A stretch of DNA of 32,000 bases. It comes from Breznakia sp. PF5-3. Its GTDB lineage: Bacteria > Bacillota_I > Bacilli_A > Erysipelotrichales > Erysipelotrichaceae. Both the position numbers and the translations under genes were made by a program. The stretch spans positions 30,001 through 62,000 of the forward strand of contig NZ_JAQFIQ010000007.1 of the NCBI RefSeq assembly GCF_029504745.1, given 5' to 3'. A model generated the notes under the pieces. That model saw only the letters and a list, made by a program, of their open reading frames with translations, was not told where the DNA came from and did no database searches. Shown piece after piece: positions 11,677 through 29,102 of the stretch. How positions within the stretch are numbered: position 1 is the first letter of the stretch; every line of letters starts with the position of its first letter.

Positions 11677-11710
11677 GATAGTGTATAATGATAGGGAAGT
11701 AGGTGATTTG

Positions 11711-12205
11711 ATGTATGAAAAATGTATAGCGTTATTAAAAGAACGTGGTGTAGAAATTGAAGATATTGTTGATTGTGTCTTTTATTTACAACGTGGACAT
11801 ATTGATGATACAGATGCTGCATCGATAAGTGAAACAGTAAAGAAAGTAATTGATAAGCGTGAAGTTCAACATGCAATCATTACAGGTATTTGTTTGGATA
11901 AGATGAGTGAACAGCGTATGCTGGTGGATAAAGATTTAGAAGATATTTTAAATCGCGATGAATCACTATATGGAATTGATGAAGTACTAGCATATGGGAT
12001 TTGTAATTTATATGGTTCTATAGCTCTTACTAATTTTGGATATATCGATAAGGCGAAGTATGGAATTATCAAAGAGTTAAATGATCATATGGATAATCAT
12101 AATGCCTGTCATACATTTTTAGATGACATTGTAGGTGCGATTGCAGCTAGTGCTGCTAGTCGTATTGCTCATAATAAAAAGGGACCAGAAGATGAAACAT
12201 TGTAA
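11711..12205 (+). CDS. YutG-like phosphatidylglycerophosphatase A (PgpA) family protein
   Basis: Blocks LLKERGVEIEDI, KREVQHAIITGI, LYGIDEVLAYGICNLYGSIALTNFGYIDK, TFLDDIVGAIAASAASRIAH resemble B. subtilis YutG as I recall it. Start moved to ATG 11711 (MYEKCIALL). Confidence 0.7.
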   Translation: MYEKCIALLKERGVEIEDIVDCVFYLQRGHIDDTDAASISETVKKVIDKREVQHAIITGICLDKMSEQRMLVDKDLEDILNRDESLYGIDEVLAYGICNLYGSIALTNFGYIDKAKYGIIKELNDHMDNHNACHTFLDDIVGAIAASAASRIAHNKKGPEDETL

Positions 12206-12620
12206 ATGGATGCTTGCACTGTTGTCACTTACATTTATCATCACAGGTTGTTTTAATTCAAGGAATAGTGAAAAAAGCATGGAGATTGATGCAGAAACGG
12301 TTATTGAAAAGACAGTTAACCGAGAGACTTTTTTATTATTGATTGTGAATGATGATTGTGATCCTTGCGAGGATTTAATGTCGTTGATTAAAGTTCCACT
12401 GGCAAAAAACCAAATAACTTTATATAGGCTAAATTACGCTGATGTGAGTAATGATATGGCAGATCAGTTACAATTGATGTTAACATCATATTCTTCATGG
12501 CCAGCACTTGTATATGTGAAGGATGGAGAAGTTTATAGTGGTAGTGTTTATGAATATTCACTAGATCCAGAAGGGTGGGAAACATGGTTGATCAATCAGG
12601 GATTAATTCCACAAAATTAA
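12192..12620 (+). CDS. Thioredoxin-fold-like lipoprotein (CxxC)
   Basis: MKHCKWMLALLSLTFIITGC lipobox. The sequence then runs FLLLIVNDDCDPCEDL (CxxC at a helix start) ... SWPALVYVKDGEV (cis-Pro-like WPA plus beta-hairpin). The 5' part of the listed ORF (12135) overlaps the previous gene and was trimmed. Confidence 0.5.
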   Translation: MKHCKWMLALLSLTFIITGCFNSRNSEKSMEIDAETVIEKTVNRETFLLLIVNDDCDPCEDLMSLIKVPLAKNQITLYRLNYADVSNDMADQLQLMLTSYSSWPALVYVKDGEVYSGSVYEYSLDPEGWETWLINQGLIPQN

Positions 12621-13396
12621 TACAAGATAATTTAATTACTAAGGATGATTTAGTTGAGCATTTTAAAATGCTAGGCATTCAAAAAGGAATGCTTGTTTAT
12701 ATTCAATCATCACTTAACTATTTTTCGTATGTCTGTGGAGGGAATCGTACAATTATTGAAGCCCTTCAAGATGTTGTAGGTTATGATGGTGGTATTGTAA
12801 CAAATGCTTTTACTAAGGATAATAAAGATCCATTAAATCGTGATCTTCAGGTTTTTAAACCATATCAGATTGAAGTTATCCGTGATGCTATGCCAGCATT
12901 TAATAAAAAGCTGTGTGCAAGTAAAAATAAACTGGCAGATCAAATGATGCGTCATGATGGTGTTTTCCGCTCAAACCATCCAACCCATTCGTTTGTCGCA
13001 TGGGGTAAATATGCAAAATTGATTTGTGATAAGCAACCCTTGCATTTTCCTTTAACGTCAGAGTCACCACTTGGGAAAGTGTGTGAATTAAATGGCTATA
13101 TCTTACTTTTAGGAGTAAAATATGAGGCTGCTGATATTTTTAAGATGACAAGAGTGAATGATAAACAAACTCCTATTCGCATTGTTTCTAGTCCAATTGA
13201 AAGACGGGGACGCAAGAGTTTTATCAATATGTTGGATTACGATTATGAAAAGAAAGAGATCCAAGAAATTCAAGATATGATGAATGAGAGACAGATTGTG
13301 AAAGAAACCTATATTGGAAGAGCACGTTGTCGATTATTCAGTGCAAAAGAGGCAGCTACTTTGGCAAGTGGGTTCTATCATACTCATAAAAAATAA
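12584..13396 (+). CDS. AAC(3)-family aminoglycoside N-acetyltransferase-like protein (YokD-like)
   Basis: LVYIQSSL, SNHPTHSFVAWG, SPLGK, LLLGV and RCRLFSAKEA blocks are typical of the Antibiotic_NAT/AAC(3) fold. Start placed at ATG 12584 after aagggtggg; GTG 12575 is possible. Confidence 0.75.
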   Translation: MVDQSGINSTKLIQDNLITKDDLVEHFKMLGIQKGMLVYIQSSLNYFSYVCGGNRTIIEALQDVVGYDGGIVTNAFTKDNKDPLNRDLQVFKPYQIEVIRDAMPAFNKKLCASKNKLADQMMRHDGVFRSNHPTHSFVAWGKYAKLICDKQPLHFPLTSESPLGKVCELNGYILLLGVKYEAADIFKMTRVNDKQTPIRIVSSPIERRGRKSFINMLDYDYEKKEIQEIQDMMNERQIVKETYIGRARCRLFSAKEAATLASGFYHTHKK

Positions 13397-13411
13397 GCAA
13401 AAAAATATGCA

Positions 13412-13453
13412 ATGTGTATTGTTCGGCATTATCGAACGATATACATTTTTTTT
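13412..13453 (+). terminator. Rho-independent terminator
   Basis: atgtgtattgttcg (13412-13425) pairs with cgaacgatatacat (13433-13446), including G-U pairs. 7-nt loop, then T7 (13447-13453). Confidence 0.8.
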
Positions 13454-13593
13454 GACAAGTTTGGATTTTAATATTTTAATTATATACAGTAAACGATTTT
13501 TGGATGGTTTTTTCGATATGATAAAAACAAGACAAAAAAAGTGATATTCATAGCAAATGTTACTATTTTAAATCGCATTGATTTAGGATAATC

Positions 13594-13622
13594 TTACAGG
13601 TAAATAAACAAATTGCTATAAT
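13594..13622 (+). promoter_or_regulatory. Sigma-A type promoter for the signal peptidase gene
   Basis: TTACAG (13594-13599)-N17-TATAAT (13617-13622), with TGc immediately upstream of the -10 (extended -10). It lies 18 nt upstream of ATG 13640. A second candidate is TTGACA (13452-13457)-N17-TTTAAT (13475-13480). Confidence 0.55.
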
Positions 13623-13639
13623 CTTCGAGGGGTTAAAGG

Positions 13640-14200
13640 ATGAAGAAACTTAGAATCAGGAGTGAATATGTCATTTTTATTTTGAGAATGTTTGTAATCT
13701 TCAGCGTTCTTGTTTTTGTTGTAACTACTTTTATCTTTCGAACGGTGCGAATCAATGGACAAAGTATGGAACCAACATTACAAAGCGGAGAATATGCATT
13801 TTCAAACAGATTGGCAGCAGATGAAGGGAATATCAATCGATTTGATGTAATTGTAATTGATAACATTGAAGAAGATTATGTGGTGAAAAGAGTAATTGCA
13901 CTCCCCAATGAAACCATATCTTACAAAGATGGAAAGTTATATATTAATGGTGAATGGTATGAAGAACCATTCTTAGATCAAGAATATATTGCTTTGCATA
14001 CAATGAATAATCAAATTACTTTTACGCAAAATTTTGGACCAATCACATTAGGTGAAAATGAATATTTTGTACTTGGTGATAACCGATTGAATTCAAAAGA
14101 CTCTCGGGTCGTTGGTCCAATTCCTGAAAAAGACATTGTTGCAAAAGATGTAATTGTAGTATATCCGCTAAATAGTATACGTGTAGAAAGTTCCAACTAA
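13640..14200 (+). CDS. lepB: Signal peptidase I
   Basis: N-terminal TM, catalytic Ser box GQSMEPTL, Lys box VKRVIALPNE, and box E GDNRLNSKDSR. 186 aa. Confidence 0.92.
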   Translation: MKKLRIRSEYVIFILRMFVIFSVLVFVVTTFIFRTVRINGQSMEPTLQSGEYAFSNRLAADEGNINRFDVIVIDNIEEDYVVKRVIALPNETISYKDGKLYINGEWYEEPFLDQEYIALHTMNNQITFTQNFGPITLGENEYFVLGDNRLNSKDSRVVGPIPEKDIVAKDVIVVYPLNSIRVESSN

Positions 14201-14226
14201 TTTTTTAATTATTGGAACCTTTTTTG
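14190..14226 (+). terminator. Weak terminator-like hairpin after lepB, overlapping the -35 of the next promoter
   Basis: gttccaa (14190-14196) / ttggaac (14212-14218), 15-nt AT loop, then T6 (14220-14225). The stem is short, so this is tentative. Confidence 0.35.
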
Positions 14227-14238
14227 TTTATTTCCGTC
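14214..14238 (+). promoter_or_regulatory. ECF-type promoter P1 (GGAACC-N15-CGTC) upstream of sigma gene 1
   Basis: GGAACC 14214-14219, CGTC 14235-14238. Same motif and spacing as at 20795. ECF sigma promoters classically carry GGAAC at -35 and CGT(C) at -10. It lies 30 nt upstream of ATG 14268, which fits autoregulation. Confidence 0.6.
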
Positions 14239-14267
14239 AATATGTTAAGAAAGGATGAAAATGGAAT

Positions 14268-15593
14268 ATGAGCAGATTGAAAAAAGAAGAGATTCAAAAA
14301 TTTCTAGATGGAGACGATAGTGTTTTTCCTGAGATTTTTGCTGCTTATCGTAATAAGATTAATTATCTTGCGATAGAAATCTTACGAAACCAGGCAGATT
14401 GTGAGGAAGTAGTTCAAAATACGTTTATTAAAATCATTACCAAACGTAAGGATTTACGTGATGCTAGTGCTTTTAATACATGGATTTATCGAATTGCTTA
14501 CAACGACTGTATGGATATATATCGGCAAAATAAAAAGGGTAAAACAGGTATGAATAATGACTACACTCTAGAAAATTATTCTGACAACAAAGGAGAGCCA
14601 AACGATGTGGTGAGTAAAAAGGCAATTTTAGAAGCAATTCAAAGCGAAATTGATGGCCTTCCAGAGGATATGAAACAAGTGTGTTTGTTAAGATTCGTTG
14701 GTGAATGTAGCCTTGAAGAAATCTCTGAAATCATGAGTATTCCAAAAGGCACAGTAAAGAGTAGGCTAAACAGGGCAAAAGTAAAACTTCGAGAAGGGCT
14801 GGTTGATAAGCATGTGACTCCAGCAATCTATATGTCATTGTCATTTACACCTTTGGTATTTAAGTTGTATGCATCGTTAGTAAAACAACAAGAGATGCAA
14901 CCACTTGTAGAAACAAAAGTTGCTAAAGTTATTGAAAACGCAACAGGAGTAACAGCAGGAGTAACGGTCGCAAGCGGAGGAATGATTATAGGATTTGGTA
15001 GTGCAGTAATAGGAACATCTATATTATTAGCATTATTTGGCACTTATACGATTATAAATCCAATTATTGATCAAACGGCTGAAGTTGTAAAAATTGAGGA
15101 AATCAATTATTTGAAAGATCTTACAAATGAAAATTTGCAGATTGTTCTCATGTTCAGTGGAGAACCAGATGCAAAAGATATTAGTATAACATTTGTTGAT
15201 GAAAATACAACGATCGAGGCTGAATCCGTTGACAATGAAAACTACATGTTTGTTGCGAAGGCGAATGGAACATATCATGTAGAGTATGGTGGGGTAGCAC
15301 AGGATATCAAAGTTGATAACATTGACAAGCAAAGCCCTAAATTGAAAAGTTTAGAAAAGGAAGAAGGATTACTTAAGATTATAGGTAGTGATGATTTTTC
15401 TGGCATTGATTTCGATAAATCATACGTTGAAGAGGGTTCCAATAAGTTTGATTTGATCAAAATTGATGATACATCTGCATTTTTCAAAGATGCAGTTAAG
15501 AAAAAGGCAAAGCTGTATTTGTATGATAAGGTAGGAAATTACCAGGTCTATGAGATCAATGCAACAGATACAGTGAGCAATACAGATGGGTAG
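14268..15593 (+). CDS. Membrane-tethered ECF (sigma-70 family) sigma factor fused to a TM helix and an extracellular Ig-like C-terminal domain
   Basis: aa ~20-90 form sigma region 2 (EEVVQNTFIKI..AFNTWIYRIAYNDCMDIYR). aa ~125-180 form region 4 (LPEDMKQVCLLRF..SLEEISEIMSIPKGTVKSRLNRAK). The TM is GGMIIGFGSAVIGTSILLALFGTYTII. About 175 aa of ectodomain follow (NGTYHVEY..VDNIDKQSP; LYLYDKVGNYQVYEI). It is paralogous to 27790-29091. Confidence 0.8.
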   Translation: MSRLKKEEIQKFLDGDDSVFPEIFAAYRNKINYLAIEILRNQADCEEVVQNTFIKIITKRKDLRDASAFNTWIYRIAYNDCMDIYRQNKKGKTGMNNDYTLENYSDNKGEPNDVVSKKAILEAIQSEIDGLPEDMKQVCLLRFVGECSLEEISEIMSIPKGTVKSRLNRAKVKLREGLVDKHVTPAIYMSLSFTPLVFKLYASLVKQQEMQPLVETKVAKVIENATGVTAGVTVASGGMIIGFGSAVIGTSILLALFGTYTIINPIIDQTAEVVKIEEINYLKDLTNENLQIVLMFSGEPDAKDISITFVDENTTIEAESVDNENYMFVAKANGTYHVEYGGVAQDIKVDNIDKQSPKLKSLEKEEGLLKIIGSDDFSGIDFDKSYVEEGSNKFDLIKIDDTSAFFKDAVKKKAKLYLYDKVGNYQVYEINATDTVSNTDG

Positions 15594-15693
15594 TTTCATA
15601 AAATTAGGTCTATGAAACAATACACTGTATATCCATAAAGCAATTTATGGAGAAGTGAAAGATTATAAAATTAGAATGGAGGGAGTGAAAGTT

Positions 15694-18600
15694 TTGAGAC
15701 GTAAATACGTAAAAACATTAAAGATGTTTAAAAGGTGTTTTCTTACAGCACTGGCATTAGGTATTACACTTACGGCAATAAACCTGCCAAAAATGGATAT
15801 CCATGCTCAAACAGAGGATGTTCGCTATGATTTGCAAACGGAATTAAGCGAAGATAAAAAAGAACTTCGTATTGATTTATTAGCTTATGCAAATAGGAAT
15901 GATGTTGAAATAACGGCGATTGGTAACCCTGATGGGACCATCACGGATGGAGCAAAAACGTCATATGTTTCTGTAACAAATGAAACATTGACATTTGTGG
16001 TGAACTACAAAATATTAGAAGAGAAAGATGGAAAAATAAAAGAAATCTCAAAGACAAAAGAAGTTGAATATGAGGTGGATCAATTTGGTAAAGAAGAAGA
16101 GGCACAGCCTCAAGCATTAAGTGATCCATTGGCACCATTTTCATCTTTAAAAGCAAATATGAGTTTTAGAAATGCTTTTAATGTATCTCATACAAAAGAT
16201 GGGTTATACTATCTTTCTGATAATTCTATGGAATTAGGGTATCACTATAATGAATATGTGAAATTTTTGCTTAGCAAAGCACGTTGTACTACATCAAAGT
16301 ATTGGGAAGGCTGGTATGCGAAGTTTGCTGCAGTATCAAAATATAAAGTTGATTTCTCAAAAGATTTTAAAGTTACAAACGTAATATCTTCAAATCCAAC
16401 ATTATATGGAGATGGGTTCACGTTAGGATTTCAAACAGATCCAAACTTTACATATACAACAGGTAAAGGGGGTTCTATAGGAGTTTACCGTAATGGTAGT
16501 GACTATGGGGCTCGCAATGGTGTAGTATTTGAAGTTGATTATCATGATAACTCTCCAGATGGAATGTGGCATGATATAGGATTAGGTGGAAATCACTTAG
16601 CAATTCATACAACGGATGCTTATGGAAATGAATCAACTCCAGTTGCTTCTTGGTTCGGTGTAAAACACACAGGAAGTCTAACTGCATTCAATGTGACTTG
16701 GACAATTACAGATAAAGCTACAAACACTGGGACATTGACATTTACATATGGAACATACAATTTGAAATATACAAATTTCAGACCACATGAAGTATTTGGT
16801 GGGTCAGTAAACAATCCTACAGCAGCATATTTAACATATACTGGAGTAATCTTGAAAGATTATGGTTCAAATAACAAACCATTCCAAATCACAATGACAG
16901 ATTATTCTTATCTTGAAGATGAAGTAACTGCAAGTGATGGATTTATTACCCAAACTCAAGCAAAAGCTTTGGCAAACCAAAATGGATTAATTCTTTATAA
17001 CAATGCATCTGCAGTTTCTACTGCTGGAGATAGTGTTACACCTACGGTTTCAACACCTGCATGGAGCAACATTAAATCTGGTTTAGTAGGTACTTATGAT
17101 GTGACATATGCTTATGGAACAGCATCAAAAACAGTAAAATTAAGCGTAATTAAAGATGGATCAATCATTTCACCAAACAAGGATTTCTCACTTTATGCAG
17201 AAAATGCTTCCTTGTTACAAAGTGAAGCAATTGCATTAAGTTCAATGAATGATTTAGTATCTGTTCATGATGCAAGTGTAACGATGGCAAATGGAACGCT
17301 TCTTGCACCAAATGCAACAACAAGTGCTTGGTCATCAATCAAAGCTGGGGTTGTAGGAAATTACGTGATTACTTTCTATTATGGAACAGGATCAAACTAC
17401 ACAGCAAAAAACGTTACATTATCAGTTGTTGCTGATAAGAAACATGAAATATATGCAAGTGATGGATTTATTACCCAATCACAAGCTAAGGCACTTACGA
17501 GTATGCAAGGATTTATTCCTTACAACCAAGCAAAAGTAATTACTAATGAAGGTGTTACTACGGTGCCAAGTACCGTTGCTACGAACTATTGGAATGAAAT
17601 TAACACAGGAACAATCGGTTCTTATAACGTTACATATTCTTATGGATCAGGAACAGCAAGAGTATCAAAAACAGTAAAATTAAATGTTGTGAAAGATGGA
17701 ACTGTGTTCCCTCCAGATAACAGTTTTGCATTATATGCAGAAGATGGTTTTATTAAACAAAGTCAAGCAAAAGCACTTACATCAACAAGCCAATTAATAC
17801 CTTATAACAATGCGAGCGTAACATTGGCTGATGGAAGTAGTGATGTACCATTCGTTAGTTTAAATACTTGGTCAAATATTGTGAGTGGAACGATTGGTAG
17901 CTACGATATCGTATATATGTATGGTGCTGGTGCTAACCTTAAATATAAAGTTGTGAAATTAAACGTTATTGAAGATGGTGGTATTATTGCACCAGATAAG
18001 AGTTTTGCATTATATGCAGATAATGGAACGATTTCACAAACCCAAGCATCTGCACTTACAGGTACATCACAATTAATCCCTTATAACAATGCGAAAGTAA
18101 TTTTGGCGAACGGAACACGTGCAGAACCAAATGTATCTGCTCCAACGTATAGCGAAATTGTGAGTGGGGTTGTAAAGACTCATAAAGTTACATATAGTTA
18201 TGGAGTGCTTACAAACAAAGTATCTAAAGAAGTAGACTTACAATTAATTGCTGATAAGCGTCATGAAGTTCGCGCAGAAGATGGCTTCATTTATGCAACA
18301 CAAGCGAAAGCATTAACAAATCAAAGTGAATTAATTCCATTTAATAGTGCAAGTGTTATAACAAACACTGGTCAAAGTGCACAACCGGTTGTAACAACAG
18401 GAAGTTGGGCTAACATTGTAGCTGGGGTAACTGGTTCATATGATATTACTTATAGCTATGGAAGTGGAACAACACAAGGATCAAAAACAGTAGTCTTGAA
18501 TGTTGTACCAGATGGAACAATATTCCCACCAGATAAAGCATTTGCAGTATATGCAGAAGATGGTTTAATCAATGTGGAACAAGCGAAGAAGTTAACAGCA

Positions 18601-20691
18601 CAAAAAGATCTTATTCCATATAACTCAGCATATGTAATGTTGAAAAATGGAACGATTGTAGATCCAGATGTATCTACTTGGGATTGGGTAAAAATCTCAG
18701 CTGGAATTGAAGGAACATATGATGTTAACTATGGTTATACAATTATGCCGAATACGGTTCAAAAAGGTGTAAAACTTACTGTAACAAAAGGTACAACACC
18801 ACCAAGTAATTCATTCTCATTATATGCTAGAGATGGATTTGTATATGAAGATCAAGCAAAAGCATTTACTGCCCAAAAAGATATGATTCCATTCAATGAT
18901 GCTTTTGTAACATTGAAGGATGGATCAAGTGTAGATCCACAAGTTGCAACACCTCATTGGTCAGCAATTAAGGATGGAACAATTGGTTCATATCCAGTAA
19001 CATATGGTTATACAAAGGGTAGTGAATCATTATCAAGTGTTGTGAAATTGAATGTTGTAGAAAATGGTTCTACCATTTCACCAGGACAAGATTTTGCAAT
19101 TTATGCTAAGAATGGAATTATTCAACAATCATCTGCACAAGCATTGATTAGCTTGAATGATTTAATTCCTTACAATGGTGCAAAAGTTACCCTTAAAGAT
19201 GGTAGTGAAGCTACGCCAACGGTAACAACAGCAGATTGGACAGCAATTCGTGCAGGAGTATTGGGTACATATTCAATTACCTATAGTTATGGTAGTGGTA
19301 CGAATACAGCATCTAAAGTGGTAACACTAAGAGTAGTACCAGATGGAAATCCTTCACCAGAAGGAGACTTCATCTTATATGCTTCAAATGGATTCATTTC
19401 AAAAGAGCAGGCGATGGCTATTACAAGTCAAAAAGATTTGATTCCATATAACAAAGCATCCGTTATCAAGGACGATGGTAGCGATGCAGAACCATCTGTA
19501 TCAACAACTAGTTATGCAGATATTAAAGCTGGTAAATTAGGTGTTTACAATGTAACATATCGTTATGGATTTGGTACAAACTTAGTTTCAAAAACAGTGA
19601 AACTTACAGTTCATGATGGTACTCCTTCACCAGGAGGAAATTATGTATTAAATGCTAAAGATGGTTTAATTTCTAAAAGCGAAGCAAAAGCATTAAGTTC
19701 AACAGCAGACTTAATTGCAATTAACGACGCATCTGTTTGGATGAATGATGGATCAACTGATGTTCCAGTGGTTACAATGCTACCACTTAATTGGTTATCT
19801 TTAAATGAAGGTATTATCAATAGCTATCCAGTTCTTTATAGTTATGGAAGTGGTAGTGATTATACACAAAAAACAGTTCGTGTAACAGTGTATGATGATG
19901 GTGGTATCATATCTCCAAATAAAGACTTTGTATTAAATGCTAAGAATGCAGTATTAACACAAAGTGAAGCAAAAACTTTAACAAGTGCAAGTGACTTAAC
20001 CGTTTATAATGATGCTCTTGTTAGTTATGCAAATGGTAACAAAGCAATTCCAAATACAACAGCTACAGAATTTGCTTCTATTAAAAGTGGTGTAGTAGGA
20101 ACTTACAATGTAACATATGATTATGGTACAGGATCTAATTACACAGAAAAAGCAGTGAAATTAGTAGTTGTAAAGGATGGCGCATTGATTGCACCAGATC
20201 GTAGTTTTGCGATTTATGCAGAAGATGTAACATTGAATCAAGATGAGGCACGCGCATTGACAAACAAAAATCAAATTACAAGTTTGGCACACGCGATGGT
20301 CTATATTGCAGATGGAACAACAGCAACACCTACGTTGTCACTTCCAGATTGGGATGATATCAAAGCAGGTATTTCAAATGATTATGCTGCTGATTTCACA
20401 TATCAAGATGTAACAGGTAGTATTAATATAAAAGTTACGCAAGAATATGTAACAAGATATCTATTTGACTATGATAATAACAAACGTATTGATGTTATTG
20501 ATTATGCTTATTTTGCAAGTTACTATAGTGGTGCAACACCAATGTCTCCATTGGCTTGGGCATTAACAGATTACCCACCAGGAGATGGACGTATCGATGT
20601 TATCGATTTAGCACACTTTAAACGTCATTACAGCGATTCGACACTTCCATTGGTTGAAGTAGAAGTACCAGCAGATTGGCGCTTAGAATAA
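15694..20691 (+). CDS. Giant secreted adhesin-like protein: signal peptide, N-terminal beta module, L-type lectin-like domain, 13 Ig-like (Big_3/DUF5011-like) repeats and a C-terminal dockerin-like module
   Basis: The likely start is TTG 15694, 11 nt after GGAGG (15678-15682); the listed GTG 15655 has no SD. Signal peptide RRKYVKTLKMFKRCFLTALALGITLTAINL..IHA/QT. Lectin-like blocks DGFTLGFQ, GGSIGVY, NGVVFEVDYHDN, NHLAIHT. Repeat signature DGFIxQxQAKALT..LIPYN.A.V...G....P.V....W..I..G..G(S/T)Y.VTY.YG.G....K.V.L.V. The C-terminus has two Ca-loop-like segments, DYDNNKRIDVID and PGDGRIDVID. Confidence 0.85.
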   Translation: MRRKYVKTLKMFKRCFLTALALGITLTAINLPKMDIHAQTEDVRYDLQTELSEDKKELRIDLLAYANRNDVEITAIGNPDGTITDGAKTSYVSVTNETLTFVVNYKILEEKDGKIKEISKTKEVEYEVDQFGKEEEAQPQALSDPLAPFSSLKANMSFRNAFNVSHTKDGLYYLSDNSMELGYHYNEYVKFLLSKARCTTSKYWEGWYAKFAAVSKYKVDFSKDFKVTNVISSNPTLYGDGFTLGFQTDPNFTYTTGKGGSIGVYRNGSDYGARNGVVFEVDYHDNSPDGMWHDIGLGGNHLAIHTTDAYGNESTPVASWFGVKHTGSLTAFNVTWTITDKATNTGTLTFTYGTYNLKYTNFRPHEVFGGSVNNPTAAYLTYTGVILKDYGSNNKPFQITMTDYSYLEDEVTASDGFITQTQAKALANQNGLILYNNASAVSTAGDSVTPTVSTPAWSNIKSGLVGTYDVTYAYGTASKTVKLSVIKDGSIISPNKDFSLYAENASLLQSEAIALSSMNDLVSVHDASVTMANGTLLAPNATTSAWSSIKAGVVGNYVITFYYGTGSNYTAKNVTLSVVADKKHEIYASDGFITQSQAKALTSMQGFIPYNQAKVITNEGVTTVPSTVATNYWNEINTGTIGSYNVTYSYGSGTARVSKTVKLNVVKDGTVFPPDNSFALYAEDGFIKQSQAKALTSTSQLIPYNNASVTLADGSSDVPFVSLNTWSNIVSGTIGSYDIVYMYGAGANLKYKVVKLNVIEDGGIIAPDKSFALYADNGTISQTQASALTGTSQLIPYNNAKVILANGTRAEPNVSAPTYSEIVSGVVKTHKVTYSYGVLTNKVSKEVDLQLIADKRHEVRAEDGFIYATQAKALTNQSELIPFNSASVITNTGQSAQPVVTTGSWANIVAGVTGSYDITYSYGSGTTQGSKTVVLNVVPDGTIFPPDKAFAVYAEDGLINVEQAKKLTAQKDLIPYNSAYVMLKNGTIVDPDVSTWDWVKISAGIEGTYDVNYGYTIMPNTVQKGVKLTVTKGTTPPSNSFSLYARDGFVYEDQAKAFTAQKDMIPFNDAFVTLKDGSSVDPQVATPHWSAIKDGTIGSYPVTYGYTKGSESLSSVVKLNVVENGSTISPGQDFAIYAKNGIIQQSSAQALISLNDLIPYNGAKVTLKDGSEATPTVTTADWTAIRAGVLGTYSITYSYGSGTNTASKVVTLRVVPDGNPSPEGDFILYASNGFISKEQAMAITSQKDLIPYNKASVIKDDGSDAEPSVSTTSYADIKAGKLGVYNVTYRYGFGTNLVSKTVKLTVHDGTPSPGGNYVLNAKDGLISKSEAKALSSTADLIAINDASVWMNDGSTDVPVVTMLPLNWLSLNEGIINSYPVLYSYGSGSDYTQKTVRVTVYDDGGIISPNKDFVLNAKNAVLTQSEAKTLTSASDLTVYNDALVSYANGNKAIPNTTATEFASIKSGVVGTYNVTYDYGTGSNYTEKAVKLVVVKDGALIAPDRSFAIYAEDVTLNQDEARALTNKNQITSLAHAMVYIADGTTATPTLSLPDWDDIKAGISNDYAADFTYQDVTGSINIKVTQEYVTRYLFDYDNNKRIDVIDYAYFASYYSGATPMSPLAWALTDYPPGDGRIDVIDLAHFKRHYSDSTLPLVEVEVPADWRLE
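16921..20445 (+). repeat. 13 tandem, diverged ~255-285 nt (~88-90 aa) coding repeats (Ig-like modules)
   Basis: I counted 13 units from the recurring (L/I/V)YA(E/D/K/S)(D/N)GF..(Q/E)AKAL .. G(S/T)Y(D/N)VTY.YG motifs. Short identical DNA strings recur, e.g. aaaacagtaaaattaa at ~17131 and ~17671. Confidence 0.85.
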
Positions 20692-20744: not shown

Positions 20745-20775
20745 AAAGAGGATGCTAACGCATTCTCTTTTTTTA
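20745..20775 (+). terminator. Strong rho-independent terminator after the giant adhesin gene
   Basis: aaagaggatgc (20745-20755) / gcattctcttt (20760-20770), 11 bp with one G-U. The loop is taac and the stem runs into ttttttt. Confidence 0.8.
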
Positions 20776-20794: not shown

Positions 20795-20819
20795 GGAACC
20801 TTTTGCGCTGGATTCCGTC
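20795..20819 (+). promoter_or_regulatory. ECF-type promoter P3 (GGAACC-N15-CGTC) upstream of the cohesin-like gene operon
   Basis: GGAACC 20795-20800, CGTC 20816-20819. The flank TTCCGTCGATAT compares with P1 TTCCGTCAATAT. It lies ~60 nt upstream of ATG 20881 and just downstream of terminator 20745-20775. Confidence 0.6.
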
Positions 20820-20880
20820 GATATTACAGAAAGGAGCATTTTACATTGTAATTTTTATTTTATGTAAAGAGGAGGACGAA

Positions 20881-22413
20881 ATGAAATTGAAAATAAAGAG
20901 TAATAAATTCAAGATCCTGGCAGTTGTAGTTTTGGCTGCTATTGTGGCAATCCCAAGTATGTTGGCAGCAAAGCCTATGGATACGAAAGCGGATGAAGTA
21001 GATGGCGAACCTACTTTTGATATTGCACCAATACATCAGGTAACTAGAAATGATGGAGGAGGAGCATATGGAACACATGCTCAACAAAGCTATGTAGAAG
21101 ATGGTGTTCAATATTATCGTAATGGCGATATTATTGAAGTAAGCATCATGCTTCCTAAAGGACACGGTGCGACCGTATTCCAAGATGTTGTAAAATATGA
21201 CGAAGAGAAATTAACATTAATTTCACCTTTCACAGATATTAAAGCAACATTATCTAAAAACTATTTAGATAAAAGATGGTCAACAGAAGTGTCAAACCCA
21301 AATGCAGATACTTCACGTATTTTAGTATTTGGATCAGCAGCAGATTTTACAACTGGTGCTGAATACCAAGGTGGTAGTGTTGCTAGAATGTATTTCCGCG
21401 TTAATAATAATGTGGAATCTGATGCAGGTACAGCAATTACATTTGAATTCCCAGAATTCCAAACCGCTGGATATTCAAATGGAAAAGTTGTATATACACA
21501 CAGAGGATATGATGCAAATAACGATGCAGCTACTGCATTCTATCAAGCAGAACCAGTTACAATATATGCAAAAACACCTTCAAAAACAGTAAATGCACCA
21601 ACCCTTAACTTGAAGAATAGTTCAGCAACTATTTATGAAGGAGATTTATTTGATCCAGCTTCATACATAAGCAATGCTTCTTGTGAGGTTGATAAATCAG
21701 TAAGCAAAGACACTGTTGATATTAGTGAAGGAACTGGAGTTTATACAAAACATCAACCAGCAGCTGGAACTTATGTTTATAAATACAGCGTAACAAGTAG
21801 TACAGGAAAATCAACAGAGAAACAATTGTCTTTAAAAGTAACAGCAAGAACATATACAGTTGCTTCTATCGATGTAGATTCTAAAAAAATATCATTGCCT
21901 GTTGGAACAGCAAGTTCTGATTTAGAAGCAATGATTAATGAGATGAAAAAAGAAGACTTTAATGTAACTATTACTTGTAATGATGGTTCTAAATTTGTTG
22001 TTCCAGGAAAAGTATTGAATGGAAAAACAGATACTTACCGTATTGATGAAAACGATAAGTTATTAGCACAAACATTTAATGTTAACTTTACATTAGCATT
22101 GCCACTTGTTTCTTATGGAACAGATGGATCAAGAATTGTAACGCCATACAATGGAAGTTCAAGTTTTGTAAGTAATGTTGGAAATGGAAGAGCGGATGCA
22201 AAAGTTCCTGTTATTATCGGTACAGGTAATTCAGGAGGAAACAATACTGGAGGAAATTCTTCAGGAAAACCATCTACTGCACCTACAGCAGGAAGTAGTA
22301 ATGGTAGTGGTTCTGCAGCTTCAACAGGGGATACAACAAATGTAACATTCCTTGCAGTATTAGCTATTTTATCAGCAGGATTTATCGTACGTTCAAAATT
22401 TAAAAAACAATAA
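20881..22413 (+). CDS. Cell-surface anchoring protein: signal peptide, cohesin-like module, Ig-like domains, G/S/N/T linker and a cell-wall-sorting-like C-terminus
   Basis: Start ATG 20881 after agaggagg; the listed 20752 extension crosses a terminator and a promoter. Signal peptide KFKILAVVVLAAIVAIPSMLAAKP. Cohesin-like region ~21004-21575 (GDIIEVSIMLP..VFQDVVKYDEEKLTLIS..RILVFG..GGSVARMYFRVNN..GTAITFEF). Big_3-like SSATIYEGDLFDP..GTYVYKYSV. Tail GSGSAASTGDTTNVTFLAVLAILSAGFIVRSKFKKQ. Confidence 0.8.
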   Translation: MKLKIKSNKFKILAVVVLAAIVAIPSMLAAKPMDTKADEVDGEPTFDIAPIHQVTRNDGGGAYGTHAQQSYVEDGVQYYRNGDIIEVSIMLPKGHGATVFQDVVKYDEEKLTLISPFTDIKATLSKNYLDKRWSTEVSNPNADTSRILVFGSAADFTTGAEYQGGSVARMYFRVNNNVESDAGTAITFEFPEFQTAGYSNGKVVYTHRGYDANNDAATAFYQAEPVTIYAKTPSKTVNAPTLNLKNSSATIYEGDLFDPASYISNASCEVDKSVSKDTVDISEGTGVYTKHQPAAGTYVYKYSVTSSTGKSTEKQLSLKVTARTYTVASIDVDSKKISLPVGTASSDLEAMINEMKKEDFNVTITCNDGSKFVVPGKVLNGKTDTYRIDENDKLLAQTFNVNFTLALPLVSYGTDGSRIVTPYNGSSSFVSNVGNGRADAKVPVIIGTGNSGGNNTGGNSSGKPSTAPTAGSSNGSGSAASTGDTTNVTFLAVLAILSAGFIVRSKFKKQ

Positions 22414-22473: not shown

Positions 22474-25400
22474 ATGAAAAAATTCTTTAAATTATTTATC
22501 GCTGCATTTATAGCAGTAACATGTATTGTTCCTTTACAAAGTATTTCAGCGGCTTATGGAGATCCAGTAGAGCCAATTTACCAAATTTCACGTAATGATG
22601 GTGGAGGGAAATATGGAACACATAAGAACCCTGATTATAAAGAGGGAACTACACAATATTACCGTGATGGAGATATTATCGAGGTAGATTTCAGATTACC
22701 AGCTGATTCAGGAGTTCAAATTTATAACCAAGTTATTAAATATGACTCAGATCAGTTAGATTTATTATCATCAGATACAGATATTACAGGTACTTTATCA
22801 TCTACTTTCACAAGTAAGAATTGGTCAAGTACAACAGCAAGAGACAATAATGACAATGAAAAAATCTTAGTTTATGGGGGAAGTAATAACTTTGGAAACC
22901 CTGATACAAAAGATTATACAGGTGGAACGATTGCTAAGGTTTACTTCAAAGTAAAAAATGGAGTTGAATCAACAGCAGGAACACCAATTACATTTGAATT
23001 TATGAATTTTCAAACAGCAGAGTTTAAAAATAACAAAGTTTCTTATACACATATAGGATATGATCCTAACAACGATGCAGGAACGGTATACTATACAGCT
23101 CCTTCACAAACCATTCAAGTAAAGAAACCAAGTGTAACATTTAGTGCTAATGATGGATTTATTACACAAAGCCAAGCAAAAGCATTAAATACAAAGAATG
23201 ATTTAAAAGCTTATAATGATGTAAGTGCAAAATTAACTGATGGCACTAATATTGATGTGACAACAGATGCACAAAACTTCAATGATATTAAAGCTGGAAA
23301 AATTGGTTCTTATGATGTGACATATGGATATACACATGATGGAAATTCAGATAGTAAAAAAGTAAAATTAAATGTAGTATCTGATGATGCAGTTATCTCA
23401 CCAGAGAAAAATTTTGCTTTATCAGCAGAACATGCATTTATTACTGCATCGGATGCGAAAAAGTTAACGAATAAAACACAATTGATTTCACTTAACAATG
23501 CAAAAGTAACATTGAAAAATGGTACTAACGCTACACCTAATGTAGATGCACCTGCATTTGCTTCTATTCAAGCAGGAAGTGTTGGAACTTACGAAGTTAC
23601 TTATAGTTATGGAAGTGGGTCTGATACAGCAAGTAAAAAAGTGTTTGTAACGGTTGTGAAAGATGGTTCGGTGATTTCACCTAACAAAGATTTCTCACTT
23701 TATGCAAAACATGGATTTATTAAGAATACAGAAGCTAAAAATTTAACAAGTAGAACTCAATTGATTCCATATAACAATGCAGAAGTTACACTTGTAAATG
23801 GAGATAAAAGAGATCCTAGACCAACAGTAACAGCTGCTGAATGGTTATCAATTACTTCTGGTATTAAAGGAAGTTACAATGTTCTTTATGAATATGGTGA
23901 TGGAGCAAATGAAACAAGCTTGGTTGTTAAAATAACAGTCATTGATGAAAACGATCCAATCTCACCAAACAAAGAAGCAAGTCTATCTGCACAAGATGTT
24001 GAGCTTAGTGAAACAGAAGCAAAAGCGCTTACATCAAAGAATGATTTGATTGCTTTAAATAAAGCGTCTGTTACATTATCTGACGGTTCTGTGGCAACAC
24101 CAACGATAGCAAGTGTTGATTATGCTAGTATAGTATCGGGTAAAATTGGAATTTATCCAATTACATATACATATGGTAGTGGTCAAGGAAAAGTTGATAA
24201 GACAGTAAATGTAATCGTTAAAGAAGATAAAAAACATGTAATTACATATGAAGATAAGATTATTACTGTTGATCAAGCAAAAGCATTATCTAGTAAAGAT
24301 GATCTTAGAGTGGTAAACAATGTTCAAGTAACAGCAATTGATGGATCACATCCAAATGCAGTTGTTGATGCACCAACATGGAGTTCTATTAAAGATGGTA
24401 AATTAGGAACATACACAGTTACTTATAGTTATGGATACGGAGATAAATTAGTATCTGTAAATGCAAAAGTTACAATCGTTCCAAATGGTTCAGAAATTGA
24501 TGATAACGCAAGTTTATATGCGCAAAATGGATTCCTTGAACAATCATCTGCAAAAGCACTAGTAACTAGAAATGATTTAATTCCTTATAATGCAGCGTCA
24601 GTTACATTATTAAGTGGTGGAACAGCAACGCCAACGGTTGGAATGAGCGCAGGAGATTGGTACTTATTGTCGGCAGGAGAATTAGGTTCATATGATGTTG
24701 TTTATTCATATGCAAGTTTAAGCAAACGTGTTCTTGCAACAGTAATTAAAGATGGATCTATCGTTTCTGAAGATAAGACAGCAAGTTTATATGCAGAAAA
24801 TGCATTTATTGAATCAAGCAATGCTAAGAAATTAGCAAATAAAGAAGCACTTAGAGCATATAACAAAGCGTCTGTAACATTAATTGATGGTAGAACAGCG
24901 AACGCAACAGTAGATGTTGCAGCTGCTGATTGGTTAGCAATCCAACAAGGAACAGTTGGAGCATATGACATACTATATACATATGGAAGTGGAGATGGAC
25001 AAGTTAGCAAGCGTGTAAAAATTGTTGTTATCGATGATGATCCAATCATTTCTCAAGATGGGAAAGTTGCATTGAATGCAGTTGATGGTGAAATTGCGGA
25101 TACGGATGCAAAGAAAGTTACAAGCAAAGAAGACTTGATTCCATATAACAGTGCAAAAGTTACATTGGAAGATGGAACTATCGCTAAATTGGATGTAACA
25201 ATATCTACAAGTAGCTTAAATGCTATTAAAGCAGGTACGTTAGGTACTTATACTGTTACATACTCTTATGGAAGTGTTGGAAGCCCAAGTTATGTAAGTA
25301 AAACAGTAAAATTAGAAGTTGTAATTAAAACAAGAGCAATTCATATGTTTGACTATGATGATAACAAACGTATTGATGTTATTGACTTAGCACATTTCAA

Positions 25401-25569
25401 TAGAATTTATTCTAATTCTATGAATGTTTCTGCATATGATTTAATGTTAACTGACTTCAACAAAGATAAACGTGTTGATGTTATTGATTTAACACAGTTT
25501 AAATATTACTATTCTAATTCATTGATTCTTCCACCAACAGTGGATGTACCAGTTGAAATAATTCCATAA
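22474..25569 (+). CDS. Secreted adaptor-like protein: signal peptide, cohesin-like module, 8 Ig-like repeats and a C-terminal dockerin-like module
   Basis: Signal peptide MKKFFKLFIAAFIAVTCIVPLQSISA/AYG. Cohesin-like region ~22555-23133 (GDIIEVDFRLPADSGVQIYNQVIKYDSDQLDLLS..KILVYGG..GGTIAKVYFKVKNG..GTPITFEF). Eight repeats of the same family as in 15694-20691. Dockerin-like DYDDNKRIDVIDLAHFNRIY ... DFNKDKRVDVIDLTQFKYYY. Confidence 0.85.
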   Translation: MKKFFKLFIAAFIAVTCIVPLQSISAAYGDPVEPIYQISRNDGGGKYGTHKNPDYKEGTTQYYRDGDIIEVDFRLPADSGVQIYNQVIKYDSDQLDLLSSDTDITGTLSSTFTSKNWSSTTARDNNDNEKILVYGGSNNFGNPDTKDYTGGTIAKVYFKVKNGVESTAGTPITFEFMNFQTAEFKNNKVSYTHIGYDPNNDAGTVYYTAPSQTIQVKKPSVTFSANDGFITQSQAKALNTKNDLKAYNDVSAKLTDGTNIDVTTDAQNFNDIKAGKIGSYDVTYGYTHDGNSDSKKVKLNVVSDDAVISPEKNFALSAEHAFITASDAKKLTNKTQLISLNNAKVTLKNGTNATPNVDAPAFASIQAGSVGTYEVTYSYGSGSDTASKKVFVTVVKDGSVISPNKDFSLYAKHGFIKNTEAKNLTSRTQLIPYNNAEVTLVNGDKRDPRPTVTAAEWLSITSGIKGSYNVLYEYGDGANETSLVVKITVIDENDPISPNKEASLSAQDVELSETEAKALTSKNDLIALNKASVTLSDGSVATPTIASVDYASIVSGKIGIYPITYTYGSGQGKVDKTVNVIVKEDKKHVITYEDKIITVDQAKALSSKDDLRVVNNVQVTAIDGSHPNAVVDAPTWSSIKDGKLGTYTVTYSYGYGDKLVSVNAKVTIVPNGSEIDDNASLYAQNGFLEQSSAKALVTRNDLIPYNAASVTLLSGGTATPTVGMSAGDWYLLSAGELGSYDVVYSYASLSKRVLATVIKDGSIVSEDKTASLYAENAFIESSNAKKLANKEALRAYNKASVTLIDGRTANATVDVAAADWLAIQQGTVGAYDILYTYGSGDGQVSKRVKIVVIDDDPIISQDGKVALNAVDGEIADTDAKKVTSKEDLIPYNSAKVTLEDGTIAKLDVTISTSSLNAIKAGTLGTYTVTYSYGSVGSPSYVSKTVKLEVVIKTRAIHMFDYDDNKRIDVIDLAHFNRIYSNSMNVSAYDLMLTDFNKDKRVDVIDLTQFKYYYSNSLILPPTVDVPVEIIP
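23140..25325 (+). repeat. 8 tandem diverged ~270 nt coding repeats (Ig-like modules), same family as 16921-20445
   Basis: Units start at FSANDGFITQSQAKAL, LSAEHAFITASDAKKL, LYAKHGFIKNTEAKNL, LSAQDVELSETEAKAL, ITYEDKIITVDQAKAL, LYAQNGFLEQSSAKAL, LYAENAFIESSNAKKL and LNAVDGEIADTDAKKV. Confidence 0.85.
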
Positions 25570-25598: not shown

Positions 25599-26675
25599 AT
25601 GAGAAAACTAAAAAAACAAATAGCTATTCTTACAGTATTGATAATTGCATTCATTACTTGTGCTAGCCCTTTACAGGCTGTGCATTATTCACAAGTGCCA
25701 AGTAATAATGGGGGACACCGTTTGCAAAATTCAATTGCATATGTAGGAGGTGGAAGAGCACCATTTACAGAAAATGGAGTGACGTATTATAATGCAGGAA
25801 ATGTGATCGAGCTAACGGTCACATTACCTGCTAATACATACGCAGTATCTTTGCAAGAAATCATTACCTATGATTTAAATCAAGTAGATTTGGTAACAAG
25901 TTTTAATGATATTCGTCAAACCTTTGGGCAATCCCTTTTGAATGAAGGATGGGCACAAGATGTATTTAAGATGAATGGAAACAATAATCAAATTTTACTT
26001 TCTGCAGCAGGAAGTGATTGGACTAATCACTCAAGTATTGCTGGTGGAGTTGTAGGAAAGATACGTTTTCGAATCAAAGAACAAACAACAACTAATGTTG
26101 GAACAAATATCAACATTAATTTTGTTTATCAAATTGCAGGAGCAAAACCAAATGGAAAAGGGTTGGCATATATTCATGCTGGATATGATCCAAGCAATGA
26201 AGGCGGTACCTATCAAGTATCTGCACCAACGATTTCAATTGCGGCTCATAAGATACCATCTGCACCAACGACACCTACCAATCCTGAAAAACCTACTGAT
26301 CCAGTCGTGGATTATCATCCAAGTGTTGTGATCGATAAGGAAATCAGTGAAAGTAAGAAAAAAGAGATTGCGGCAATTACAGCGAAACGGGATTATTCAT
26401 TCGCAAAATCGAATGATTTTATGAATGGAAAGAATTCGTATCGAAATATTGCGAAAATGTTGATTGATCAAATGGTAAAGACAAAAGATAAAATCAAATA
26501 TCAAACATATGAGTTTAAAGATCAATATTTAGATATAAAGGCTAAGAAGACAATTGTGAAAACTACTTGTTATACACATTATCTTTATATCGGGATGAGT
26601 TTTGTAGTAATTTTTGTAACATATGGTTATAAAAAATATTTAGAAGCGAATCGTAAAGTGAAATGGAGGTCTTAA
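25599..26675 (+). CDS. Membrane-anchored cohesin-like protein: signal peptide, cohesin-like module, Pro/Thr linker and a C-terminal TM helix
   Basis: Start ATG 25599 after gaagggaagg. Signal peptide KQIAILTVLIIAFITCASPLQA/VH. Cohesin-like region ~25680-26253 (GNVIELTVTLPAN..LQEIITYDLNQVDLVTS..QILLSAAG..GGVVGKIRFRIKE..GTNININF). Linker PSAPTTPTNPEKPTDP. C-terminal TM YLYIGMSFVVIFVTYGY followed by KKYLEANRK. Confidence 0.75.
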   Translation: MRKLKKQIAILTVLIIAFITCASPLQAVHYSQVPSNNGGHRLQNSIAYVGGGRAPFTENGVTYYNAGNVIELTVTLPANTYAVSLQEIITYDLNQVDLVTSFNDIRQTFGQSLLNEGWAQDVFKMNGNNNQILLSAAGSDWTNHSSIAGGVVGKIRFRIKEQTTTNVGTNININFVYQIAGAKPNGKGLAYIHAGYDPSNEGGTYQVSAPTISIAAHKIPSAPTTPTNPEKPTDPVVDYHPSVVIDKEISESKKKEIAAITAKRDYSFAKSNDFMNGKNSYRNIAKMLIDQMVKTKDKIKYQTYEFKDQYLDIKAKKTIVKTTCYTHYLYIGMSFVVIFVTYGYKKYLEANRKVKWRS

Positions 26676-26678
26676 TTT

Positions 26679-26828
26679 ATGAACTGTGGATATGACATGA
26701 TGGCTTTGATATTATTCTTTATTACCGTGTTTGTTTGTAGCTTTTATATCATGAAATTAAAGCGTCAACATGCACAAAGTAATGTCTTACATGATCAATT
26801 TTCAAAATATTTTAAAAAAAATGATTAA
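26679..26828 (+). CDS. Small (49 aa) single-TM protein; not in the supplied ORF track
   Basis: The ATG lies 9 nt after GGAGG (26665-26669, inside the end of the previous gene) and 3 nt after its stop. Sequence MNCGYDMMALILFFITVFVCSFYIMKLKRQHAQSNVLHDQFSKYFKKND: one TM followed by a basic tail. Confidence 0.45.
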   Translation: MNCGYDMMALILFFITVFVCSFYIMKLKRQHAQSNVLHDQFSKYFKKND

Positions 26829-26832
26829 AAAC

Positions 26833-26858
26833 GGAACCTTTTTCGGATTATAAGCGTC
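26833..26858 (+). promoter_or_regulatory. ECF-type promoter motif P2 (GGAACC-N16-CGTC) with no adjacent gene
   Basis: GGAACC 26833-26838, CGTC 26855-26858. It shares GGAACCTTTTT with P1. The next CDS starts 273 nt downstream. Confidence 0.45.
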
Positions 26859-27739: not shown

Positions 27740-27789
27740 AATTATATGATAGGTTATATTTTTGTCATGTATTGAAAGGGGGCGATGCT

Positions 27790-29091: not shown

Positions 29092-29102
29092 AGGGGTAAA
29101 AG

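Follow-up and report, generated by a model that had tools for sequence, protein, structure and literature searches.

How is a lectin at the end of a long stalk held to the cell that secretes it, when the protein carries none of the usual surface anchors? The question is raised by a 32,000-nucleotide (nt) stretch of the gut bacterium Breznakia sp. PF5-3 (Bacillota, Erysipelotrichaceae; contig NZ_JAQFIQ010000007.1, positions 30,001 to 62,000; G+C content 33%), which was analysed in full and is called the window below, and by the gene for a 1665-amino-acid (aa) secreted protein that lies within it. This lectin-stalk-dockerin protein has identifiable domains, has no other anchor, and belongs to a conserved gene cassette with a promoter motif in common. 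Judged from sequence, its dockerin probably fits the cohesins encoded by the next three genes, and it seems to us rather likely that the protein, docked via a cohesin of its own cassette, forms the tip of a Breznakia surface adhesin whose subunits assemble non-covalently. Connectors of the cellulosome type appear to have been reused in Breznakia to build an adhesin.

Domains of the lectin-stalk-dockerin protein

The open reading frame (ORF) at 15694-20691 on the forward strand, singled out by an original prediction made from the letters of this DNA, is real: the public assembly and NCBI make the same call (WP_277489481.1 / M2475_000587), and the label attached to WP_277489481.1, in Breznakia sp. 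PF5-3 and PM6-1, is "hypothetical protein." The gene starts with TTG at 15694, behind the ribosome-binding site (RBS) GGAGGGAG, and stops at 20689-20691; GTG at 15655, the start in one NCBI entry, was rejected since the RBS at TTG 15694 is the better one. The claimed Sec signal peptide is likewise present, reading MFKRCFLTALALGITLTAINLPKMDIHA/Q and ending in ...LTAINLPKMDIHA/Q. Hydropathy detects no hydrophobic segment outside this peptide, there are no LPXTG-, NPXTG- or LAXTG-like motifs and no C-terminal hydrophobic segment in the protein, and a Pfam scan of it finds no S-layer homology (SLH), LysM or cell-wall-binding (CWB) module. With the motif, hydropathy and Pfam scans all empty, the earlier statement that LPXTG, transmembrane (TM), SLH, CWB and LysM anchors are missing holds. 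A phmmer search of the whole protein against PDB gave no match.

The head of the protein is, on the evidence of its modelled fold, an L-type lectin. A Pfam scan of the whole protein did not detect this domain, and a word-indexed search with the N-terminal 372 aa returned no homologue; scanned alone, the region matches PF18483 (Lectin_L-type_dom) at E 1.7e-7 (31.7 bits against a cut-off of 78.3). An AlphaFold2 (AF2) model of aa 145-412, with a predicted local distance difference test score (pLDDT) of 73 and a predicted template modelling score (pTM) of 0.78, was compared with PDB by Foldseek: the best 50 matches listed are all L-type lectins (E 9e-10 to 5e-6, TM-score up to 0.69), among them SraP (9e-10), 7elv (a Methanocaldococcus legume-lectin domain), the A-domains of Pls/SasG/Aap, YwfG, pea lectin, VIP36 and Emp46/47. 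Of the checks that had been suggested for the lectin reading, the structural one speaks for it; the profile match lies below its curated cut-off. A glycoside hydrolase of the ConA superfamily was rejected since all of these best 50 structural matches are lectins.

The lectin motifs that the original prediction had pointed to can be placed on a legume lectin as well. A family profile searched against PDB sequences gave a single, non-significant match, to such a lectin, with DGF..F / GG.LG / ..EFDT aligned, and the motifs of the Breznakia protein fall on its DGFAIF / GGYLG / VEFDT. The metal- and sugar-site pattern reads DGFTLGFQ / GGSIGVY / FEVDYHDN...D...NHLAIH, matching E-x-D-x-x-x-N...D...H, where DG, GG and E-x-D are aligned with the legume lectin and N, D and H are placed by inspection; E136, D138, D150 and H157 are invariant in a 7-sequence family alignment. 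The domain retains the Ca/Mn-site residues and therefore should bind glycan; this binding, and its specificity, we infer from the residues present.

Among 1.84 billion representatives, a full HMMER scan yields just nine proteins; the head is therefore rare. P0001 (1653 aa, 64% identity) and P0002 (1113 aa, 60%) are orthologues of the same architecture. The homologous region of four distant relatives (P0003-P0006) matches either PF18483 (E ~1e-10; under the cut-off in P0004 and P0006) or Lectin_legB, PF00139 (E ~1e-3); the match of P0007 is confined to the N-terminal module, and two further relatives of the nine are marginal. P0003-P0006, which come closest to the lectin head among non-orthologous proteins, are 284-515 aa long: three of the four join the head to DUF11/CARDB, one of those three also to a Spy0128-like isopeptide (FctA) domain, and P0004 is a lectin domain alone. 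By its domain matches, this lectin subfamily is mounted on very different chassis in other bacteria.

Four Breznakia lineages were compared, namely the window (L003), L001, L002 and L004 (the metagenome-assembled genome (MAG) VLC_068). The N-terminal module that had been claimed ahead of the lectin is present in the window (aa ~40-140) and conserved in four orthologues, including the tip protein of L001 with its different head. It matches the NCBIfam model NF053816 (Listeria Lcp N-terminus) below that model's cut-off, and its profile gave nothing meaningful against PDB.

Between head and dockerin stands a stalk for which the original prediction had given 13 immunoglobulin (Ig)-like repeats. 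The number is exact: 13 repeats of 86-95 aa and 41% mean identity, each at E 1e-30 to 1e-41 against their own joint profile, start at aa 411, 498, 586, 678, 771, 859, 950, 1041, 1134, 1226, 1317, 1412 and 1505. The Ig-like label is the more doubtful part, in that Big_3 is matched by three of the 13, all at E >= 0.02 (best 0.022); p1031, a protein of the same cassette that has eight of the same repeats, passes the Big_3 whole-protein threshold (29.8 against 21.2 bits), and the repeat profiles gave nothing meaningful against PDB. An Ig-like nature and a length of ~40-50 nm are thus predictions for this stalk. Recently expanded DNA repeats were rejected as an explanation, since no DNA-level tandem repeat was found in the stalk.

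The stalk varies in length among relatives (13, 13 and 8 repeats). All 13 repeats of the L002 orthologue are in 1:1 positional orthology with those of the window, and the L004 orthologue, which has eight repeats (seven by repeat hidden Markov model), is without a stretch inside the stalk that spans about repeats 4/5 to 9. The last repeat, R13, abuts the dockerin with no linker and is kept with it even in the most divergent tip protein, at 56% identity against 34% for the next-best repeat. As we read it, the R13-dockerin pairing recalls the X-module-dockerin dyads of CttA and of scaffoldins.

The claim of a dockerin-like C-terminus is borne out, and we regard this dockerin, from its sequence and that of its orthologues, as genuine. 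It comprises two tandem segments of ~22 residues, each a Ca-loop plus helix, as is usual for dockerins, and loop 1 (D-Y-D-N-N-K-R-I-D-V-I-D) is canonical at positions 1, 3, 5, 9 and 12. The orthologous dockerins of P0001 and P0007 score 34 and 36.5 bits in Pfam against a cut-off of 22.9 and carry the canonical SDANxDGRIDVxD as their loop 2. A 7-sequence family profile matches solved dockerins at E 6e-8 to 6e-3, i.e., 8x39, 4fl4, 5nrm, 9qf9 (R. bromii Amy16), 2vn5 and 5lxv_B.

The adjoining cohesin-like proteins and their conservation

The three genes that follow encode p510, p1031 and p358, which have in common an N-terminal domain of ~200 aa (34-49% identity). A profile of this domain found the ScaC cohesin (5lxv) as its sole full-length match among PDB sequences, a weak one (E 0.55), and a second cohesin profile gave a spurious match to FlgK. 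A structure model built on a 6-row alignment (pLDDT 79, pTM 0.79) is more telling: 49 of its best 50 Foldseek matches in PDB are cohesins, at E 3e-6 to 4e-4, led by the Ruminococcus flavefaciens ScaC cohesin in its dockerin complex (5lxv, E 3e-6) and followed by type I, type II, Clostridium perfringens and archaeal cohesins. Insertions, one of which is a helix, keep the TM-scores at a moderate 0.4-0.6. On this model, the domain common to p510, p1031 and p358 has a cohesin fold. A fibre of the TasA/SipW type, which the adjoining signal peptidase gene had brought to mind, was rejected, as the peptidase is an ordinary bacterial-type S26 enzyme and the domain is cohesin-like.

Two of the three proteins have a predicted C-terminal anchor. 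The start of p510 agrees with the public gene call (ATG at 20752 was rejected, as it overlaps the terminator and promoter), and its C-terminus (22306-22410) consists of GDTTN, a hydrophobic stretch and RSKFKKQ. An arrangement of [GN]D[TA]TN, ~20 hydrophobic residues and a K/R tail recurs in 4/4 p510 orthologues, and TIGR01167 scores the tail at 13.1 bits against a cut-off of 15.9 (E 0.12); processing of p510 by a sortase would be consistent with this layout. Tails of the [GN/Y]D[TA]TN type were seen at 6590-6691 and 18380-18481 of L001, at 22306-22410 of the window, and at the equivalent sites of L002 and L004. They may represent an undescribed sortase-type sorting motif of Breznakia. NPQTN is a signal of class B sortases, to which the likeness is only faint. 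As to p358, which is identical to Breznakia sp. PF5-3 M2475_000590, the conserved C-terminal stretch CYTHYLYIG...TYGYKKYLEA was read from sequence as a predicted membrane anchor and lies below the 19-residue hydropathy threshold of 1.6. Directly after p358, a 49-aa ORF (26679-26828), also a gene call in the public assembly, encodes a small hydrophobic protein (MNCGYDMMALILFFITVFVCSFYIMKLKRQ...).

Each cassette, in 4/4 lineages, holds exactly three cohesins and two dockerins. The cohesins form three orthologous classes, with identities of 46-65% for the p510 type, 48-63% for the p1031 type and 40-55% for the p358 type, against 25-51% between classes. Tip-type and adaptor-type dockerins within one genome are 38-50% identical, and orthologous dockerins 47-64%. 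In the L001 tip protein, Lcp-like module, repeats and dockerin are all retained, but another region stands where the lectin would be; the chassis is therefore constant and its head exchangeable. A Na+/H+ exchanger gene has been inserted in L002, where the set is otherwise intact. A genome scan with the p358 family added one further locus, that of Breznakia MAG VLC_068, and two metagenome scans at the Joint Genome Institute (JGI) found nothing related; the system looks confined to Breznakia.

No enzyme is encoded in the window cassette, and each cohesin protein has a single cohesin. In L001 only, a gene for a 2336-aa enzyme of glycoside hydrolase family 31 (GH31) adjoins the cassette (11471-18481); it has discoidin domains, an internal canonical dockerin (GDYTNDGKVNEDD...), then a cohesin-like stretch, and ends in an xDATN tail of the kind described above. 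The dockerin and cohesin modules of this GH31 enzyme are not detected by the cassette-specific profiles and therefore represent a second, different cohesin-dockerin type in the genus.

Promoters, sigma factor and flanking genes

The features of the locus are collected in Table 1. The promoter-like motif GGAACCTTTT-N-CGTC (GGAAC-N16/17-CGTC), of the type read by extracytoplasmic function (ECF) sigma factors, has three copies in the window against 0.04 expected. It recurs at equivalent positions in all other loci, with the equivalent of promoter 1 in L002 and L004; the sigma gene of L001 is divergent, and there the motif stands directly ahead of the tip gene. The 441-aa sigma protein matches Pfam Sigma70_r2/r4 and TIGR02937 (4e-27), has a TM segment by hydropathy, and is encoded 100 bp ahead of the lectin gene, with no terminator-like site between them in the scan. 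On the simplest reading, the three promoters would form an autoregulated regulon of this adjoining tethered sigma factor.

Table 1. Coordinates of features at the Breznakia sp. PF5-3 locus (positions in the window)
Feature	Coordinates	Strand	Basis or remarks
Signal peptidase I (S26)	13640..14200	+	Pfam Peptidase_S26 1.2e-43; TIGR02227 1.7e-43
ECF-type promoter 1, GGAACCTTTT-N-CGTC	14214..14238	+	Ahead of sigma gene and lectin gene
Membrane-tethered ECF sigma factor	14268..15593	+	Sigma regions 2/4, TM aa ~236-264, ~175-aa extracytoplasmic domain
Signal peptide of lectin-stalk-dockerin protein (aa 1-39)	15694..15810	+	K/R-rich n-region, hydrophobic core, IHA/Q; RBS GGAGGGAG
N-terminal tip module (aa 40-140), Lcp-N-terminus-related	15811..16113	+	NF053816 E 4.7e-17, below model cut-off; kept in 4/4 tip proteins
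L-type (legume-like) lectin domain (aa 145-412), predicted	16126..16929	+	PF18483, AF2 model, Foldseek, metal motif
Stalk, 13 diverged Big_3-like repeats (aa 411-1590)	16924..20463	+	Repeat profile
Dockerin, two EF-hand-like loops DYDNNKRIDVID and DYPPGDGRIDVID plus conserved C-terminal tail	20455..20688	+	Family profile, orthologues
Terminator-like hairpin 3' of lectin gene	20745..20770	+	Terminator scan
ECF-type promoter 2	20795..20819	+	Ahead of three cohesin genes, just past hairpin; invariant in four loci
Anchor protein p510	20881..22413	+	Signal peptide, class A cohesin (21022-21582), two beta domains, G/S/N-rich linker, GDTTN + TM + basic tail
Adaptor protein p1031	22474..25569	+	Signal peptide, class B cohesin (22564-23133), 8 repeats (23143-25335), dockerin (25342-25557)
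p358	25599..26675	+	Signal peptide, class C cohesin (25665-26261), Pro-rich linker, small domain, conserved C-terminal stretch
ECF-type promoter 3	26833..26858	+	Ahead of DUF1307 lipoprotein gene (27131-27592)

Past CGTC, a block ATAT..A.AGAAAGGAG is conserved between promoters and lineages (20795-20860; 14214-14262). In the p510 leader it lies ~50 nt ahead of the real RBS, and it may belong to the promoter/+1 region or else be an element of the leader. The DUF1307 lipoprotein (lipobox LLAGCSSG) has a leader of ~270 nt, an arrangement kept in L004. The gene for signal peptidase I occupies the same position in L002 and L003 and has its own sigma-70-like promoter (13593-13622). Signal peptidase carries out site-1 cleavage of the anti-sigma factor RsiV in Bacillus, and a role for the present enzyme in freeing the tethered sigma factor, or in processing cassette proteins, is conceivable.

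Farther downstream, 27772-32000 is a parallel module of sigma factor and surface protein. It comprises a second membrane-tethered ECF sigma fusion of 439 aa, laid out as the first (27772-29091), a 389-aa surface protein with a Flg_new repeat and a C-terminal TM segment (29103-30272), and a large leucine-rich repeat / Bact_surface_Ig-like protein that runs off the window (30269-32000). Upstream of this second sigma module GAACC is present and CGTC is absent, and its promoter specificity is therefore probably different.

Docking, polymerisation or release

These features suggest how the adhesin might be put together. After Sec export, the far N-terminus would display the Lcp-like module and the L-type lectin for binding to glycan or fibre, the 13 Big_3-like modules would hold this head ~40-50 nm from the C-terminus, and the R13-dockerin dyad would insert into the cohesin of one of the three following gene products. 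In the most economical wiring, the cohesin of anchored p510 would hold the dockerin of p1031 and the cohesin of p1031 would hold the lectin protein, a hierarchy that would yield a fibre of up to 21 modules; i.e., docking may proceed through the adaptor p1031 instead of directly to the anchor. Protein p358 would provide a second, membrane-level socket. The adjoining tethered ECF sigma factor would switch the set on via the three promoters, one of them autoregulatory. Which dockerin pairs with which cohesin, and which sigma factor reads the promoters, is what we infer from this arrangement. The original prediction that the dockerin plugs into a cell-bound cohesin thereby gains strong circumstantial support from its context, i.e., three downstream genes with a cohesin fold, two of them with a predicted C-terminal anchor, in a set that is kept in four lineages under a common type of promoter; actual binding is what such a context would predict.

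Several observations weigh against the docked adhesin. (i) The Pfam dockerin model (PF00404) matches the lectin-stalk-dockerin protein at E 0.097, below threshold, and (ii) in loop 2 (D-Y-P-P-G-D-G-R-I-D-V-I-D) one residue is inserted and the Asn of position 3 is missing. (iii) Pfam cohesin models give no match on p510, p1031 or p358 at E <= 0.01, (iv) xD[TA]TN in the p510 tail is not a described sortase signal, and (v) the two dockerin types are weakly separated, which makes the specific hierarchical wiring a guess. Also, (vi) related staphylococcal lectin domains bind their ligands non-canonically (PMC9999234), such that glycan binding by the head is not guaranteed.

The sub-threshold dockerin with its aberrant second loop, as well as the terminator-like hairpin that stands between the lectin gene and the cohesin genes, would suit a lectin that is released, acting as an agglutinin or as a biofilm component of the matrix, with a dockerin that binds some other partner or only stabilises the protein through Ca2+. 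We hold this to be very unlikely, however, given that the cohesin genes are strictly co-conserved beside dockerin genes in four lineages, that the promoter motif is common to both, and that the set is unbroken by the Na+/H+ exchanger insertion in L002. A different assembly would be a non-covalent cohesin-dockerin pilus, in which p1031 would polymerise head-to-tail as the shaft, p510 would form the base and the lectin protein the cap, following the logic of sortase pili without their covalent bonds. That p1031 carries a cohesin, eight repeats and a dockerin in 4/4 lineages, that tip and adaptor dockerins are nearly as alike as orthologues (identities above) with hydrophobic residues at recognition positions in common, and that the composition of the cassette corresponds to base, shaft and tip, would all fit such a polymer. 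Nonetheless, the three cohesin classes diverged long ago and have each been conserved, as expected of distinct specificities like those of adaptor scaffoldins and not of promiscuity, and each type of dockerin has retained a C-terminal tail signature of its own; we therefore judge polymerisation unlikely. A bolder form of the same idea, which we put forward with corresponding reserve, would make the four genes a new class of pilus-like fibre joined by cohesin-dockerin bonds, not sortase isopeptide bonds, under an outside-sensing one-component ECF sigma factor. Its parts, a proposal just as tentative, would be a base (cohesin and sorting signal), a possibly self-polymerising shaft (cohesin, eight repeats and dockerin) and an exchangeable tip (lectin or other head, and dockerin).

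A further doubt, compatible with any of these assemblies, concerns what the head recognises. It may not recognise sugars, the ligand being non-canonical and possibly a protein, or the Lcp-like module may be the real binding site, for instance for plant fibre. Among the closest structural matches of the lectin domain are Aap/SasG/Pls, and these are without a cis-peptide that sugar binding is believed to require (PMC9999234); the L001 tip protein, despite its different head, has retained the Lcp-like module; and Lcp promotes attachment to plant surfaces (PMC10172500). The equally close matches SraP and YwfG, however, do bind sugars according to entry titles and literature, and the classical Asp (DG), Gly (GG) and Asn are present together with the E-x-D...H metal-site positions, which leaves a head indifferent to sugars somewhat improbable in our estimation. 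Our preferred reading thus remains the docked adhesin with a glycan-binding tip.

In function and logic, the closest known system is CttA-ScaE of R. flavefaciens, where a dockerin-borne substrate-binding protein has been shown on a sortase-anchored cohesin (PMC4266597, PMC2930009). As in CttA, the Breznakia tip protein is non-enzymatic, with its binding modules N-terminal and a module-dockerin dyad C-terminal (PMC4266597, PMC2930009); as in CttA-ScaE, the partners lie in one gene cluster, and for the C-terminal sorting signal of the cohesin protein in that system the p510 tail is a candidate counterpart. The cohesins described here have their best structural match in R. flavefaciens as well. 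The head of the Breznakia protein, however, combines an L-type lectin with an Lcp-like module, whereas CttA has carbohydrate-binding modules (CBMs), and the Breznakia cassette differs from CttA-ScaE in its 13-repeat stalk, its ECF sigma control and its lack of enzymes or enzyme-bearing scaffoldins. Its host is one of the Erysipelotrichaceae, not of the cellulolytic Clostridia, and its cohesins are too divergent for Pfam. The original prediction had called display of a lectin through cohesin-dockerin docking unusual. This holds for an L-type lectin periscope-type adhesin in an enzyme-free cassette, but not for docked display as such, for which CttA-ScaE is the precedent (PMC4266597, PMC2930009).

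L-type lectins at the tips of stalks of variable length likewise have precedent (PMC9999234). The Periscope-type adhesins Aap/SasG/Pls, along with SraP and YwfG, are the top structural matches of the Breznakia lectin domain and likewise place an L-type lectin tip on a rod of variable repeat number (here 13, 13 and 8). Those adhesins are covalently anchored via LPXTG and sortase, whereas the Breznakia protein is without such a signal and has a dockerin instead; its stalk is Big_3-like, not G5-E or cadherin-like, and its repeats have diverged to 41% identity and are not near-identical at the DNA level. The three tiers of anchoring cohesin, cohesin-plus-dockerin adaptor and terminal dockerin subunit resemble ScaA/ScaB/ScaC of Acetivibrio cellulolyticus (PMC4959524), and type II cohesins are among the structural matches of the Breznakia cohesin model. 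In contrast to these scaffoldins, the Breznakia proteins have a single cohesin each, the terminal subunit is an adhesin and not an enzyme, and anchoring is predicted to occur through a sorting-signal-like tail or TM segment, not SLH. Relative to cellulosomes and amylosomes in general, the cassette lacks both dockerin-bearing enzymes and multi-cohesin scaffoldins. Glycoside hydrolase pairs of C. perfringens also use cohesin-dockerin contacts outside cellulose degradation (2jh2, 2vo8 and 2w1n are among the best structural matches); unlike the present set, they link secreted enzymes or toxins and not a lectin fibre to the cell. Literature searches for dockerin-bearing fibrillar adhesins, or for cohesin-dockerin adhesins of Erysipelotrichaceae, found nothing relevant.

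To our knowledge, nearly all known cohesin-dockerin pairs serve to hold enzyme machines together (cellulosomes, amylosomes and clostridial toxin complexes), and we know of Gram-positive L-type lectin "periscope" adhesins only as sortase-anchored proteins. What is new here is the combination of an L-type lectin periscope-type adhesin with a cassette that lacks any enzyme; the Breznakia cassette joins cohesin-dockerin connectors with periscope-type lectin adhesins, and to all appearances the sole purpose of this self-contained, enzyme-free group of three cohesins and two dockerins is to carry a lectin on its long stalk. Since Pfam misses its highly divergent cohesins, there are probably more non-cellulosomal cohesin-dockerin systems than have been counted. 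Ultimately, the locus would offer a modular way of displaying proteins non-covalently, with a tip that can be exchanged, as one lineage carries a different head. It would also serve as a compact model for mechanically loaded adhesion without covalent anchoring, and its promoters outline a clean candidate regulon of a membrane-tethered ECF sigma factor; should the polymerising fibre prove true, interest in the locus would rise considerably.

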